Origin: Promethearchaeota archaeon
Lineage (GTDB): Archaea; Asgardarchaeota; Thorarchaeia; Thorarchaeales; Thorarchaeaceae
Reading direction: 5' to 3'
Length of the DNA stretch: 22,604 nucleotides
Assembly: GCA_014728035.1 (NCBI GenBank)
Contig: WJMJ01000109.1
Location: 1-22,604, forward strand
Shown here: positions 5,131 to 11,689 of the stretch, one piece after another
Layout: every line of letters starts with the position of its first letter
Position numbering within the stretch: position 1 is the stretch's first letter
The notes under the pieces: model-generated
Seen by the model: only the letters and a program-made list of their open reading frames with translations
Told to the model about the DNA's origin: nothing
The model's database searches: none
Position numbers and translations under genes: made by a program

Positions 5131-6021
5131 ATGAGCGATTTCTACCCAATATCTCCCTTGGTTGGCATCACCAATACCAGCTACGGGGCGCAAGCTGGAG
5201 TCATGGATGAGAAATGGGCATGTAGAGTTGTACGTGGTAAGAAGATTATCACCGAAAAGACCATGCCTGATTTGTCATTGGACAATTTCGTTGGAGTGAT
5301 TTATGGTCACATTCGTGTTGAAGGATTAAGTCGTCATTCAGTTGCTCGATGTGCTGGACGACTAATGCAATTTTCCCGAAAGTATCAAACAGCTGGAATT
5401 TGTCCAAATTTTGAAATACCTGATTTAGTTAGGGACAGTGAAGACGGTGAAGAATATATTGCTGCTACGCCATCTTCTACTGTAGAACCTGAATCTGGGG
5501 GATCCACTCAGGCTGTACCAGAAGATGAAGAAATCGTTATAGAATCTGCACATATTGGGTCTTTGCCAAATGTGGTTCCAATCGTCGGGAATAAACTTTG
5601 GGCAAAGAGTGTAGAATCGCATGCCATAATTCTGAATGAGACAATTGCTTATGCTGGTGATTTAGGGCCGGAACATCTCGATGCTATGATTACACGTATT
5701 GCTAATGCGATGTTAAAACAATGGATAGATCCCAGTGATCCTCACCAAGTGGTGACCAAGTTCTGTCAAATGATACAAGGCTGTTCCAAAGAGAGTCAAC
5801 TACCAAAAACAGGTGTTGGAAAATTAACAGTTGAAACAGGAAAATGTGAAGTTCTCTGGATGGCTCGTGAATTGGACCCTGATGCTGACCGATTTCCAGC
5901 AGGATATCCTTGTGCATTTCACGAATTACTTGCTGAGAAGGTTGCAGAGATAGCGGGTCTTGAAATCAATGTCAATACATCATCAATTGGCTGTACTGTA
6001 GACCTGAAACTTCCTGATTAA
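5131..6021 (+). CDS. Hypothetical two-domain protein with a putative C-terminal V4R/HNOB/Bet3-superfamily-like Cys3 domain
   Basis: Start moved to ATG 5131 (GAGG upstream). N-domain, then an acidic Ser/Thr/Glu linker, then a C-domain 'LTVETGKCEV...GYPCAFH...GCTVDL' with V4R-like Cys spacing. The ORF is solid; the fold is inferred. Confidence 0.55.
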   Translation: MSDFYPISPLVGITNTSYGAQAGVMDEKWACRVVRGKKIITEKTMPDLSLDNFVGVIYGHIRVEGLSRHSVARCAGRLMQFSRKYQTAGICPNFEIPDLVRDSEDGEEYIAATPSSTVEPESGGSTQAVPEDEEIVIESAHIGSLPNVVPIVGNKLWAKSVESHAIILNETIAYAGDLGPEHLDAMITRIANAMLKQWIDPSDPHQVVTKFCQMIQGCSKESQLPKTGVGKLTVETGKCEVLWMARELDPDADRFPAGYPCAFHELLAEKVAEIAGLEINVNTSSIGCTVDLKLPD

Positions 6022-6119: not shown

Positions 6120-6401
6120 ATGTCGTATCTTACCATGCGTGAATATGTTCGCTCAGGACCAGTTTGTTTTGGAGCGATACTCGTGATTGCAGGTGCAATC
6201 TTAGCTTTGCTTCCTTCAATTGACGCTGCATATGATTTTGTACCAGGAATGACAACAATCATAGGTGCTGTCGTAGCAGTTGTTGGTTTGGTTCTGATTC
6301 TTATTGGATTCTTCTTCACATCGAAGAAGCGTGATTCGGTCCTTAGACCTGTTGATACCAAATCAGATGATACCCCACCCGCACCTCCTCCACCAGACTA
6401 A
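6120..6401 (+). CDS. Small 2-TM membrane protein with C-terminal polyproline tail
   Basis: AGGTGA RBS upstream. Two hydrophobic helices (VCFGAILVIAGAILALL; IIGAVVAVVGLVLILIGFFF), a KKR stop-transfer, and tail DTPPAPPPPD. Confidence 0.75.
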   Translation: MSYLTMREYVRSGPVCFGAILVIAGAILALLPSIDAAYDFVPGMTTIIGAVVAVVGLVLILIGFFFTSKKRDSVLRPVDTKSDDTPPAPPPPD

Positions 6402-6432: not shown

Positions 6433-6482
6433 TCCAGGACCTGTATTTTTCAGGTCCTTGGAGTAACTTTTCTTCTTTTTTC
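6433..6482 (+). terminator. Stem-loop plus T-tract terminator
   Basis: AGGACCTG(6436-6443)-TATTTTT-CAGGTCCT(6451-6458), extendable by TCC/GGA, followed by TTTTCTTCTTTTTT. An upstream A-tract suggests it could act on both strands. Confidence 0.7.
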
Positions 6483-6583
6483 CTCATTGTTTTTGCCAAT
6501 TCTGCTTGATGTACCTGCTAGTAATGCTAATATGCGGGGAATACGAAAAAACTAGTAACAGACCTATTGGATGGGAATGGTCA

Positions 6584-6874
6584 ATGACAGTACTTGAGTA
6601 TAAAGATTCAAAATTTCACGAGGCACAAGGTCAGGGTTCTACTGAAATCATCTTGAAAGTTGATGATTCTGCTAAGAAGCTTATACTGACTATCCCTAGT
6701 GGAGTAAGCCTGATTCAGCGAAGAGCTGCAGAAAGAAACGCACGATCAATACAGAAGTCTGGTTTTCAGACGGCTCGGCAAGGACGCATCGGAAAAGGAT
6801 ACGAACTTGTTGTAGAAGGTCATGGTGGAGGACTTCCAGATCGTTTGAAGCATTCACCACGCGAGGTATACTGA
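6584..6874 (+). CDS. 96-aa hypothetical protein; putative divergent single gelsolin-like domain
   Basis: Start moved from TTG 6506 to ATG 6584 (MTVLEYKD). Its core aligns without gaps to the gelsolin domain of the 11406 gene (see findings). Confidence 0.55.
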   Translation: MTVLEYKDSKFHEAQGQGSTEIILKVDDSAKKLILTIPSGVSLIQRRAAERNARSIQKSGFQTARQGRIGKGYELVVEGHGGGLPDRLKHSPREVY

Positions 6875-6892
6875 GTGGGCAAATCTGCCCAC
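6875..6892 (+). terminator. Hairpin immediately after the stop codon (terminator or RNA-stability element)
   Basis: GTGGGCA-AATC-TGCCCAC is a perfect 7-bp stem. Only a weak T-rich stretch follows. Confidence 0.45.
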
Positions 6893-6963: not shown

Positions 6964-8742
6964 ATGTCCGATGAGGAAACCAGACGAATCATAGAAGAAG
7001 CCACCAATGAATCGTTGCGGGAATCATTCACCGCAGCTGGTAGAAAATTTGAAGAAGCAGCTGAATTACTTGAACAAAAAGGCGATTATGACCAAGCCAC
7101 GAAAGTTTTTGCTCAAGCTGGTGAAGCCTATGAAAAGGCTGCATCACGTTATCGAGAATCCAAGAGTTTCAAGAATGCAGCTCTCAATATGTGTATGGCT
7201 GGCGATGTTTATTCAGAAATTGCTGAACCTGCAAAGGCAATACAATCTTATGAGCAAGCAGCTGAAGATCTGATTGGTGCATCAGGTGAATATTTGATGT
7301 GGGGTGAAGATTCAGAAACTGCAAAAGGAACCGCATTAGCTGTTCTATCCAGTATGATCTACCTTATGATTGGCAAAGAAGCTGAAGCATTTTACAAAGC
7401 ACGAACTTTTGCTGCTGAAAATGCATCAAAACTCAGGTTCCCGGGTGTTATCCGTCTAAGTCAAATTCCACAGATGCTTGAAAGTGCTTTGCAGTCACTT
7501 GATCTTGAAGCTTTTGCTAATGCTGAAACAGCTGCTGTAACAGAATTGAAATCAGCTCTAGCAAATGCCAAAGCCCAAGACTTTGTAAAATATGTAGACA
7601 AGGGTCTTGATATGGTCCGGCAGATGCTCCGTTCAAAATTGAAAGTACCAAAGATTTCTGCTACATTGGATTTACCCGTTGACATGACATTTTCTGAACA
7701 GTTTCCTCTTAAGGTTATTATCAAGAATACTGGTGAAGGTGAAGCACTTTCTCCCAAAGCATCATGGGAATTAGATGAAGACTTGGTTATCGTTTCTGGC
7801 GAGAAAGACAAGTCGATGCCTATACTGCCTGCAGGAGAAACAATGGTGATGGAGCTTATTGCCAAGGCTGGACAAGAGCTTGAAGGTATGAAGGAATATT
7901 CTGTAATGGTTAGAGGTTCATATCAAGACAAGCTAAAGACCGAGTATTCTCTTCAGGCAGGACCCGGAACTCTTGTTCTTAAAGATTTCAAAGAGTCCGA
8001 AAAATTACTTCACGACCTAGATATAACTGGTGGACGCGTAGGATTACTTTCATCATCAATTGATGAGTCTGAACTAGAGAAAGAGCCGTTGATTCGGATA
8101 GCTAGTGGTCTTCAGAATATTCTCCAAAAAGCAAGAAAAGAGATAGAATCTTCTGAAATCGAGACTGGAAAAGCTAGAATCAAAGTAGTCAATGAAACTG
8201 TAGACCTGATGGATGAGGTTGTAGGTGATGATTCACTTGGTGATAAATTACAAATCGCACGTGAAACCTCAAAGAAGGAATATGCCTTGTCCAATATCAT
8301 TCCTCTAAAAGAAAAGATTCATGAAGCTATTGCTCAGGCACAGACCTCTTTGGATGGTATGATTTCAGAATCAATTAGAGAGTGGGATGCTCGAGCTGAG
8401 AAGAAGAAAAGTTTGGCTGAAAAGGTTTCAGGAGCTCAGTCTAAAGCTAGGGAGATAGTTGGGACCTTAGAGGAAATCCACAAGAAAATACCAAAAGCTT
8501 CAGATACAACAGACCCAGAGCTTGCCACACTACGAACAAAGATTAGGACTTCACTTGATCAAGCGATTTCTCATCTTCGAGACCTCAAATCAACTATTGA
8601 AAGTGTAGCTGAAGATGATGTCCTGAATATTGGCGAGAGACCTACTACTCCTGAGAAAGTGAAGGTAGCTAGGGACTCTCTTGAAAAGGTGAAATCCGAA
8701 ATTAATACAATCCTAGAAACAAAGAAGTCCGAGCTTGAATAG
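6964..8742 (+). CDS. Multidomain protein: alpha-SNAP/TPR-like solenoid, CARDB/Ig-like beta-sandwich, and coiled-coil/helical bundle
   Basis: GGAGGT RBS at 6949-6954. The N-terminus has SNAP/TPR-type 'A...FEEAAE....GDYDQA...F.QAGEAYEKAA..Y...KSFKNAA....AGDVY.......AIQSYEQAA' helical repeats. The middle has the CARDB-like 'F.LKVIIKNTGEGEA...LPAGET......YSV.VRGSYQD'. The C-terminus is heptad-rich. No TM helix. Confidence 0.7.
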   Translation: MSDEETRRIIEEATNESLRESFTAAGRKFEEAAELLEQKGDYDQATKVFAQAGEAYEKAASRYRESKSFKNAALNMCMAGDVYSEIAEPAKAIQSYEQAAEDLIGASGEYLMWGEDSETAKGTALAVLSSMIYLMIGKEAEAFYKARTFAAENASKLRFPGVIRLSQIPQMLESALQSLDLEAFANAETAAVTELKSALANAKAQDFVKYVDKGLDMVRQMLRSKLKVPKISATLDLPVDMTFSEQFPLKVIIKNTGEGEALSPKASWELDEDLVIVSGEKDKSMPILPAGETMVMELIAKAGQELEGMKEYSVMVRGSYQDKLKTEYSLQAGPGTLVLKDFKESEKLLHDLDITGGRVGLLSSSIDESELEKEPLIRIASGLQNILQKARKEIESSEIETGKARIKVVNETVDLMDEVVGDDSLGDKLQIARETSKKEYALSNIIPLKEKIHEAIAQAQTSLDGMISESIREWDARAEKKKSLAEKVSGAQSKAREIVGTLEEIHKKIPKASDTTDPELATLRTKIRTSLDQAISHLRDLKSTIESVAEDDVLNIGERPTTPEKVKVARDSLEKVKSEINTILETKKSELE

Positions 8743-10037: not shown

Positions 10038-10427
10038 CTATTTACCTAGAAGTGCTCCTACTTCTCTAGCATATTTTCTCATCTGGGTTACTGCAAGACC
10101 CATTGAGGTCAAATCTCTTGCTGCTCCCATAAGCAGGAACTCTCCCGCTTGCGAAAGCACAGCAAATCCTCGTTTGCCTCTTACGGTAACTTCGAATAAT
10201 TCATCTAGGTCAAGTCGTCCAGCAGCCATTTCTCCTGTCGCTAATAGTGCAGCACTTACCGCAGCCATAAGGTCTGGGTCAGTATCTGAATCTTCCGTTG
10301 CAAAATATGCGAGTTTAACACCCTGTTTTGTGATTACAGCAATAGCATCCAAATCTGCATAATTTGTCAGACCCATTAGAAGTTCAACTAATTCACGTTC
10401 TTTCTGGGGATCTAATTGTGATGACAT
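10038..10427 (-). CDS. Roadblock/LC7 (MglB-like) domain protein
   Basis: 129 aa with the roadblock pattern 'L..L......AIAVITKQG..LA........D.MAAVSAALLA.GE.....L....L.EV.VRG..G........GE.LL......MGL'. GGAG-rich RBS upstream. Confidence 0.9.
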   Translation of the reverse strand: MSSQLDPQKERELVELLMGLTNYADLDAIAVITKQGVKLAYFATEDSDTDPDLMAAVSAALLATGEMAAGRLDLDELFEVTVRGKRGFAVLSQAGEFLLMGAARDLTSMGLAVTQMRKYAREVGALLGK

Positions 10428-10458: not shown

Positions 10459-11406
10459 TTATTTGGCTACGAGTTTCTTCTTATCGCTTTTTCCTTCTTC
10501 TTCTCCTTCCAATGAAGCATCGTCAACTTCAGAACGGAAGAAGGTAATGAGGTCTCCAAGCCGTTCCTTCATTTCTTGCTTGATTGGGCTTAATATAGCA
10601 TCAGGAGTTCCCTTTAAAAGTTCAATTCCAAGAACTCGACCATCTTTTACGATTACACGTGGTACGAATCCTTCTGCCATAAATGTTCCCTCTGGTGGGT
10701 CTTTGACCTTTTCGAACTTGTGTTCTATTTTGGTTTGGCCAAAAACTGAGATAGTATGTTCTGCCACAGTAAATAGCTCGTTGTATACGATTAGCAGCTC
10801 TCGCCTGTATCCTTCAGGTGGATCAGTTTCCTCTAGTTCTTTGATCATTGATTGAATTTCTGATGATGATACTGAGGTTGTAGATGTTTTTGCAGTTGCA
10901 GCTGAGCTTGATGCGGTCGAAGCTGAGCTTGATGCAGGTGGAGGAGACCTACTCTCTGATTTCGGCACTGGTGGTGCTGTTTTAGCAGAACTTGAAGCTG
11001 CTGATGGTTTTGATTTTGGCTTAGGCTTAGGAGGGGGTGTTGAAGTTTCAGTTTTTTCTGTTTTGGGTTTTGGAGGGGTTCTTGATTCTGGAGGAGTTGG
11101 ATCTCCTGGTTTCAATACTGGTGTAGCTGCAGTCGTACCATCTAAAGCAGTAAAGAATGTGGGAGGCTCCTCGCCTTCATCAAGAGGTCGCACTTTAAAG
11201 TGAAAACCGTACTCTGTACGTAAATTAGTAGCTACTCTCGCACCAATGAATTTCTTTCGCACCCCTGCTTGACTACCTTTCCACAAGTAAATGCTCTTGG
11301 TTTCGTCATCAACTACACAGACAACCTTGGTGGAATCCAAACTGTCCTTATCCATCTCAACTTCTTGAAGTGTACCATCTTCAGATACTTCATAGCCCCG
11401 TACCAT
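10459..11406 (-). CDS. Gelsolin-like domain protein, 1DGelX-type architecture (gelsolin domain, low-complexity linker, C-terminal domain X)
   Basis: The N-terminal 'LDSTKVVCVVDDETKSIYLWKGSQAGVRKKFIGARVATNL...DEGEEPPTFF' matches the gelsolin consensus (L.S.....LD....IY.W.G.......A...A..l....EG.E...F). A P/S/T/A/K linker and a globular 'PPEGYRRELLIV..ELF...PRVIVKDGRVLGIELL' domain follow. Alternative start GTG 11415. Confidence 0.82.
   Translation of the reverse strand: MVRGYEVSEDGTLQEVEMDKDSLDSTKVVCVVDDETKSIYLWKGSQAGVRKKFIGARVATNLRTEYGFHFKVRPLDEGEEPPTFFTALDGTTAATPVLKPGDPTPPESRTPPKPKTEKTETSTPPPKPKPKSKPSAASSSAKTAPPVPKSESRSPPPASSSASTASSSAATAKTSTTSVSSSEIQSMIKELEETDPPEGYRRELLIVYNELFTVAEHTISVFGQTKIEHKFEKVKDPPEGTFMAEGFVPRVIVKDGRVLGIELLKGTPDAILSPIKQEMKERLGDLITFFRSEVDDASLEGEEEGKSDKKKLVAK
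10900..10935. repeat. 15-bp direct repeat with 21-bp period in the gelsolin-protein linker
   Basis: AGCTGAGCTTGATGC at 10900-10914 and 10921-10935, encoding ASSSAST/ASSSAAT. Confidence 0.8.
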
Positions 11407-11689
11407 TTCAATCACTACGTATTATCTTGTCCCTTGAACCAATCTTTTCATAGGTTAGATATTTCTAAATCATGAAACATCATTTACCTTGTCTAGCTGG
11501 TCTGTATATCCAACACCGTTTTATCCCTTATGACGGTATATTTAGCTTTGTGTGTTGGATACCTATTAAATATGATATGATTATGTGTTATAGAGTCCTA
11601 TTCCAAATAAATAAAGAGTGTATCTAGTGTTATTATTTGGCCAAAATACGCTTATCTATTCCTTACATGAATTGGAAGTGGAGAGATCT

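Follow-up and report, generated by a model that had tools for sequence, protein, structure and literature searches.

Support for a divergent gelsolin-fold protein family across Asgard archaea, overlooked by standard annotation

Can a protein of fewer than a hundred residues without any recognized domain be a gelsolin relative, and if so, does it serve the actin system of the archaeon that encodes it? The question is raised by a stretch of 22,604 nucleotides (nt), referred to below as the window, which is contig C79 of a Thorarchaeota (Asgard) genome assembly of 4.33 Mb in 173 contigs. On its forward strand, an open reading frame (ORF) that runs from an ATG at 6584 to a TGA at 6874 (6584..6874) encodes a protein of 96 amino acids (aa), here called P0001. 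A preliminary description of the sequence had delimited this ORF in the same way, had aligned 35 residues of its product with a gelsolin encoded further downstream, and had proposed a stand-alone, divergent member of the gelsolin/cofilin superfamily, possibly binding membranes or filaments independently of Ca2+. Our analysis confirms this observation in part and supports the interpretation. The data support a divergent gelsolin-fold family that extends across Asgard archaea and has been overlooked by standard annotation, and P0001 is probably a single domain of this fold; whether such domains bind actin is a separate matter, for which our answer is more tentative.

The P0001 gene is real, strongly conserved and under purifying selection. 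A word-indexed search returned 84 homologues with 52-96% identity, nearly all of them exactly 96 aa long and starting with M-T-x-L-E-Y, and the named carriers are all Thorarchaeota (Thor) or "Promethearchaeota" metagenome-assembled genomes. The mean column identity of the orthologue alignment is 74%, and pairwise comparison of four Thor orthologues always shows more synonymous than non-synonymous codon differences. A longer start at the TTG at 6506, which would yield a protein of 122 aa, was rejected because the orthologues have 96 aa and begin at the ATG.

The alignment from which the gelsolin proposal started is correct letter for letter. It pairs residues 22-56 of P0001 without gaps with residues 31-65 of the protein from the reverse-strand ORF 10459-11415, with identities in 8/35 positions, exactly those listed. 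An "ST" directly precedes the aligned segment in both proteins, and T-I-P of P0001 indeed stands opposite W-K-G of the partner. The partner is a true gelsolin, as its 100 N-terminal residues match the Thor ProGel structure (7c2f_B) at E 4.9e-16. Taken alone, however, the 35-residue alignment is a real hint that does not rise above chance, since its BLOSUM62 score of 28 was reached by 142/300 shuffles for the whole partner and by 46/300 for the partner's first 100 residues. The best sub-segment, 17 residues beginning at "ST" with a score of 39 (7/300 shuffles for the whole partner, 1/300 for its first 100 residues), is marginal and suggestive only. A later "EG" shared by the two proteins lies outside the ungapped register; to reach it, some 7-9 residues have to be gapped, the same ones that had been singled out as an insert.

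The predicted structure speaks more directly to the question. AlphaFold2 (AF2), given an alignment of 41 orthologues, produced a model (model 1) with a predicted local distance difference test score (pLDDT) of 82 and a predicted template modelling score (pTM) of 0.65. A more diverse alignment of 53 sequences, 27-80% identical to P0001, led to model 2 with a pLDDT of 78 and the same secondary structure. The order of elements according to DSSP is the same in both models: four strands, a long helix (residues 43-59), a small hairpin, a strand (74-78) and a short helix. A model of a Thor cluster in the ESM Atlas superposes on the P0001 model with template modelling (TM) scores of 0.82/0.84. The models of P0001 show the arrangement by which the gelsolin fold is defined, a mixed sheet of five to six strands that has a long helix on one side and a short C-terminal helix on the other. 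We therefore describe the domain, as modelled, as a mixed beta-sheet packed on a long helix and followed by a short C-terminal helix, which would be the gelsolin/cofilin fold.

Structural comparisons agree on the nearest relative. When Foldseek was run against the PDB, the top match was Thor ProGel (7c2f_B, E 1.8e-3, probability 1.00, TM 0.59/0.64), and ranks 2-32 all belonged to the gelsolin family (domains of gelsolin, villin, adseverin, CapG, severin and fragmin). The fold check had been set beforehand, and both the predicted sheet with its long helix and Thor ProGel as the top structural match were found. ProGel came first in Foldseek and VIA-align alike, with gelsolin, ADF-H and the gelsolin-like domains of Sec23/24 in the next ranks, and a shape search of the Atlas listed archaeal clusters with partial gelsolin annotation (TM 0.62-0.69) ahead of eukaryotic cofilin and gelsolin. 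A protein-language-model search connected P0001, with a feature score of 0.94 (205/256 features in common), to an archaeal cluster, 28% of whose members carry the Pfam Gelsolin domain PF00626.

The likeness might instead result from convergence or from a modelling artefact, P0001 then being an unrelated small alpha/beta domain, such as a basic nucleic-acid- or ligand-binding protein. The net charge of about +5 and the arginine-rich helix, both read from the sequence, would suit a protein of this kind, and the 35-residue alignment, not being significant alone, does nothing to oppose it. Yet two independent alignments and the ESM model yield the same fold, some 25-30 consecutive top structural matches come from one superfamily with a Thor protein in first place, and the language-model neighbours carry PF00626. 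An Alba- or IF3-C-like nucleic-acid binder was rejected, as neither fold is among the structural matches listed.

The elements of the modelled gelsolin fold can be placed on the gene, all on the forward strand. Four N-terminal beta-strands (residues 2-7, 10-13, 23-27 and 32-36; 6587..6691), assigned by DSSP on both models and backed by conservation and hhalign, hold the near-invariant L4, F11 and D27 as well as the T-I-P strand at the W-x-G site of gelsolins. The long helix (residues 43-59; 6710..6760), present in both models, contains much of the family signature, with R47 (85%), A49, E50, R51 (98%), A53, I56 (87%) and K58 conserved. It is followed by a Gly/Arg hairpin (residues 60-72; 6761..6799), for which model 2, a gap in the hhalign alignments and conservation are the evidence. 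The preliminary description had called this segment a basic, Gly-rich insert; it does follow the helix, but it is not a loose insert, since it ranks among the best conserved segments of the family, with G60 (100%), R68 (89%), G70 (98%) and G72 (75%), and AF2 model 2 forms a beta-hairpin with strands 61-63 and 67-69. The last strand (74-78), a Gly-rich turn, a short helix with P85-x-x-L88 and the tail occupy 6803..6871 according to both models and to conservation; the tail is conserved within Thorarchaeota but modelled with low confidence (pLDDT 56-61 for residues 81-96). Reading L-K-H-S in this tail as a WH2-like motif was rejected for the family: L88 is conserved, but the three positions after it vary (L/T/K, Q/R/H and D/S/E), so that such a motif would at best be specific to Thor. 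Family-wide, the signature consists of L4, F11, D27, R47, R51, I56, G60, R68, G70, P85 (87%) and L88 (94%).

A link to gelsolins at the sequence level is seen when profiles are compared. We built one profile from ProGel orthologues, the N-termini of 1DGelX proteins and both halves of the 2DGel of this genome, and a second one from the P0001 family across Asgard lineages. Between the two, hhalign aligned 49-51 columns (P 7-9e-4, probability 22-27%, score 23.5) and returned the very register that had been proposed by eye. The reversed gelsolin profile scored 11, and 100 column-shuffled gelsolin profiles, a lenient control, scored 10.2 +/- 2.0 on average and 17.3 at most, so that 0/100 reached 23.5. 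Three non-overlapping subfamilies repeated the register: stand-alone proteins with P 1.2e-3, N-terminally fused domains with 5.6e-4, and domains fused C-terminally to coiled coils with 5.1e-3, the last over 71 columns, with ProGel gapped for 9 columns where the family has its Gly/Arg hairpin. The hhalign register pairs A49, A53 and I56 with the G, A and L that are conserved in the ProGel helix, and places T36-I37-P38 opposite W-R-G of the gelsolin profile. In the alignment of one subfamily, G79, P85 and L88 stand opposite the G, the invariant P and the conserved F of the EG-EP-x-x-F end of gelsolins; the two Glu residues of this E-G-x-E-P-x-x-F end are not kept in the P0001 family. Recovery of one register by eye, by hhalign and in three disjoint subfamilies counts against convergence or artefact.

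Several results weigh against the assignment to the gelsolins, among them the leniency of the shuffle control. BLASTP of P0001 against the neighbouring 1DGelX-type gelsolin gave no alignment at E<=100. The Trp and Gly of the W-x-G (D-W-G) motif, which was used by Akil et al. to tie ProGel to gelsolins (PMC7444086), are conserved at no column of the family. Neither Pfam (E<=1, Gelsolin PF00626 included) nor NCBIfam matches P0001, and no Gelsolin, Cofilin_ADF or DUF7904 match of Pfam was found in 53 domain members (E<=10) or 82 full-length relatives, which bears out the suspicion that standard hidden Markov models (HMMs) may miss these proteins. Family HMM profiles searched against PDB sequences produced chance-level matches to unrelated proteins (a natterin-like protein at E 1.4 and Sap1 at E 0.35). 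Across the family and subfamily comparisons, hhalign probabilities range from 7 to 30%. The lack of support from sequence HMMs and hhalign probabilities below 30% are what convergence or artefact would lead one to expect; set against the agreement of models, structural ranking and register, this explanation nevertheless appears highly improbable. Homology to gelsolins is consistent but weak as far as the sequences go. The predicted fold, the structural ranking and the profile-profile register together support the reading as a member of the gelsolin/cofilin superfamily, and we regard the assignment of fold and family, actin binding aside, as probable.

How does P0001 relate to the gelsolins already described from Thorarchaeota? 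The published architectures are ProGel, 1DGelX and 2DGel (PMC7444086, Akil et al. 2020). The source genome holds all three, and P0001 is none of them. It resembles Thor ProGel (PDB 7C2F; PMC7444086), which comes from the same phylum, in consisting of one stand-alone domain (about 90-96 aa), in the strand-strand-helix register with A49/A53/I56 on G/A/L, in the conserved C-terminal Pro, and in the absence of recognizable Ca2+ sites from either protein. The two differ in that identity is only about 17%, BLAST provides no link, P0001 family profiles do not match 7c2f_B by HMM, and P0001 has T-I-P for W-x-G, a 9-residue Gly/Arg hairpin after the helix and an Arg-rich exposed helix face. As the true ProGel of the source genome sits on another contig, P0001 is not a ProGel orthologue. 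Thor 1DGelX (PMC7444086) is similar to some members of the family, which consist of an N-terminal domain, a Pro/Glu-rich linker and a small C-terminal domain; P0001 itself, however, has neither linker nor second domain, and the tail domain of its relatives is not similar to domain X.

The more distant superfamily members fit less well. With ADF-H/cofilin (PF00241), Thor orthologues of P0001 share a Pro that ends the strand before the long helix, at the cofilin W-P site, and basic residues at the start of that helix. In contrast, structural scores for ADF-H are below those for gelsolin domains, no Cofilin_ADF HMM match exists, the extra helices of ADF-H are missing from P0001, the Pro is only 47% conserved family-wide, and there is no conserved Trp. 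The gelsolin-like domains of Sec23/Sec24 from the COPII coat are embedded in large coat proteins and match much more weakly, and P0001 has none of the other Sec23/24 domains.

The family is not restricted to P0001 and its close orthologues. An exhaustive profile search of 1.84 billion cluster representatives identified 94 proteins at E<=1e-3, and all those that carry a name come from Asgard lineages (Thor, Heimdall, Hod, Odin, "Ranarchaeia" and Promethearchaeota). Among the representatives there were also weak, repeated matches to two other proteins, one from a mollusc and one a repeat protein of 1419 aa; these matches, made up of many sub-threshold stretches, look spurious. The stand-alone state noted for P0001 holds for this protein, but is only one of three architectures. 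Besides stand-alone proteins of about 95-125 aa, there are proteins in which the domain lies C-terminal to 150-400 residues of coiled coil (31 representatives, in which Pfam finds only coiled-coil families) and proteins that begin with the domain and continue through a low-complexity linker rich in Pro and Glu into either a conserved, strand-rich tail domain of about 70 aa or a helical tail (23 representatives). These coiled-coil or Pro-rich-linker fusions resemble cytoskeletal cross-linkers and 1DGelX, by analogy of architecture. In a survey of 151 genomes sampled evenly from the Asgard phylum (match threshold E<=1e-5), the family was present in 132/151 genomes (~87%), in 72/77 high-quality genomes and in 47/53 genera, usually with one to three copies per genome and typically two in Thor genomes.

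Within the C-terminal ~85 aa of N-terminally fused members, a conserved tail domain of about 70 aa that belongs to no known family (helix, three to four strands, helix) recurs in P0108, P0116, P0132, P0134, P0137, P0151, P0154, P0164, P0168, P0171 and P0177, while P0120, P0125, P0163 and P0173 have a different tail, helical and Trp-rich. Identity of the ~70-aa tail with domain X of 1DGelX was rejected (hhalign P 0.26). Besides P0001, the source genome encodes one more member of the family, P0194 (~106 aa if it starts at the likely ATG), on contig C46 (L008:1441-1791, forward strand), which belongs to a distinct Thor subfamily. Both copies are present in most Thor genomes. The P0194 gene begins 44 nt after that of a 228-aa zinc-ribbon protein and precedes a PAS/GAF-type sensor gene.

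We found no description of the P0001 family in the text of the searchable literature. Recent work counted Asgard gelsolins through InterPro annotation (PMC13716822), and in the searchable text of structure-based Asgard surveys, gelsolin appears only in citations and in lists of known Asgard actin regulators. A family found in ~87% of the sampled Asgard genomes and unseen by Pfam and NCBIfam suggests that inventories of Asgard gelsolins are incomplete. With its loss of W-x-G, its new hairpin and its coiled-coil fusions, it would also document a diversification of the gelsolin/cofilin scaffold that preceded the eukaryotes.

What might the domain do? Helical periodicity would turn the small residues A49, A53 and I56 towards the sheet and leave R47, R51, R54 and K58 as an exposed basic stripe. 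The most conserved surface of the family would then be the one through which this fold canonically binds its partners, enlarged by the R68/G70 hairpin. We suggest a model in which P0001 docks with its long-helix face on archaeal actin, in our view its likeliest partner, independently of Ca2+, as ProGel and cofilin do. The stand-alone 96-aa form would then bind on the monomer or filament side, and coiled-coil-fused forms would act as dimeric cross-linkers or tethers of filaments. Independence from Ca2+ is proposed because gelsolin Ca2+ ligands are unrecognizable in the family and ProGel also lacks them; by sequence, the Ca2+-site positions at the strand start and helix start carry no conserved acidic pair, only D27. 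We infer the link to the actin system from the Asgard-only named members, the nearby 1DGelX gene, a gelsolin neighbour in a Heimdall genome, and the fusions. The three parts of this model taken jointly, namely docking without Ca2+, the binder role of the short form and the cross-linker or tether role of the coiled-coil forms, seem to us possible, though somewhat short of an even chance. If actin binding is true, the family would be a new class of regulators or cross-linkers in Asgard archaea.

The genes around P0001 bear on this model. In Thor genomes, the gene belongs to a conserved same-strand block of Cdc48, sometimes GH38, a gene for ~290 aa, a membrane-protein gene (91-93 aa), the 96-aa gene and a gene for 591-592 aa, with Cdc48 a few genes upstream. 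The ~290-aa gene (5131..6021, forward) keeps its position in all Thor loci; its orthologues start at its second Met, and its product, which is of no known family, matches nothing in Pfam or NCBIfam. Next comes the gene for a 93-aa membrane protein with two helices and a polyproline end (6120..6401, forward), an ORF conserved in sequence and kept in position in four Thor loci, where the C-terminus is a run of 5-7 Pro that leads into (R)D. The protein also contains a K-K-(K)-R-D-S-V-L segment. Directly downstream of the 96-aa gene in all Thor loci lies the 591-592-aa gene (here 6964..8742, forward, 592 aa). The N-terminus of its product is a SNAP/TPR-like solenoid (Pfam SNAP, E 5.5e-8, 33 bits, gathering cut-off 25), and the remaining ~500 residues give only sub-threshold Pfam matches.

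Beyond an aminotransferase and on the other strand, this window and two of three other Thor lineages carry a Roadblock gene and a 1DGelX gene. In the window, the latter is the source of the partner protein discussed above (10459..11406, reverse), 3.6 kb from the P0001 gene. Its orthologues start at the ATG at 11406. The match to 7c2f_B given above came from phmmer, though Pfam Gelsolin scores the protein at E 0.6 only. Its layout is that of 1DGelX in Akil et al. 2020 (PMC7444086), with a gelsolin domain at the N-terminus and a Pro/Ser-rich linker that leads to domain X. The Roadblock/LC7 gene (10038..10427, reverse; Pfam Robl_LC7, E 2e-10) lies immediately downstream of it. As a separate observation, the two genes are 31 nt apart, and the pair is kept in Thor loci L009, L010 and L011. 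Outside Thorarchaeota, one Heimdall member of the family is encoded directly downstream of a 563-aa gelsolin with PF00626. Two of nine contexts linked to a gelsolin are more than one would expect by chance, given how few gelsolin genes there are, in a sample that is small and whose members are not independent.

The neighbourhood and the surface also provide arguments against actin binding. In the third, more divergent Thor lineage, a heliorhodopsin gene replaces the Roadblock and 1DGelX genes. In 7/8 contexts outside Thorarchaeota, there is no Pfam-detectable gelsolin nearby and nothing cytoskeletal by Pfam. The long helix turns a strongly charged face outwards. Moreover, actin is not bound by every domain with a gelsolin fold, those of Sec23/24 being examples that lack this activity.

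The main rival is another reading of the same fold, in which the domain, homologous to gelsolins or not, has a different job and its Arg47/Arg51/Arg68 surface binds a partner other than actin, in parallel to the gelsolin-like domains of Sec23/24. Candidate partners are the polyproline-tailed membrane protein, the SNAP/TPR-like 592-aa protein, anionic lipids, or a trafficking/GTPase module. The tightest synteny in Thor genomes is that with the genes for the ~290-aa protein, the 91-aa membrane protein and the 591-aa SNAP-like protein, not with a gelsolin, whose gene has gone from the locus in one Thor lineage, and Cdc48 lies upstream. At the near-invariant positions, one finds charged residues or Gly instead of hydrophobic ones. 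Arf-like GTPases are frequent neighbours of non-Thor family members, and Arf-family GTPase genes flank three remote ones; this adjacency means little, however, because Arf-like GTPases are very numerous in Asgard genomes. Nor is the SNAP-like gene a constant companion, since its synteny is confined to Thor and is not seen in other Asgard lineages. In the structural comparisons, the top matches are gelsolin domains that bind actin, not Sec23/24, and a basic helix face does not speak against actin, as cofilin also uses basic long-helix residues for it. On balance, we consider a non-actin partner unlikely; should it be the correct reading, the family would be a prokaryotic case of a gelsolin fold that serves another role, as in Sec23/24.

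Actin binding can also be put into a broader proposal. The P0001 family may form a fourth branch of gelsolin/cofilin domains, Asgard-wide and absent from published inventories of actin regulators, with Ca2+-free actin binding through the Arg-rich helix, coiled-coil forms that cross-link or tether, and, in Thor, a link between actin and the membrane that involves the polyproline membrane protein. We put this combination forward as a conjecture that stands on the doubtful side.

Some minor features of the locus concern the transcript. Directly 3' of the P0001 stop codon, an inverted repeat of 7 bp with a 4-nt loop is followed by a T-rich stretch (6875..6892, forward; read from the sequence), a possible transcript end that is not among the sites listed by a terminator scan. 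A second short, GC-rich inverted repeat with a T-run was seen at 6436-6458, after the upstream membrane-protein gene. As the two repeats flank it, the P0001 gene may be its own transcription unit.

The actin gene of the source genome (contig C103, L005:1025-1105, reverse strand) deserves a remark of its own. It contains a 30-nt in-frame insertion with a TAA, exactly between the conserved C-terminal T-F-Q and M-W-V-S. Removal of the insertion restores the sequence of a genome from the same genus and of six other relatives, all of which lack it. A strong fold is predicted for the region (-30.8 kcal/mol, z -4.6); the flanking exon sequences pair with each other, and both junctions lie in bulges that flank a 4-bp helix, as in archaeal bulge-helix-bulge introns. 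The insertion thus resembles an intron of this type, or it could be an assembly artefact.
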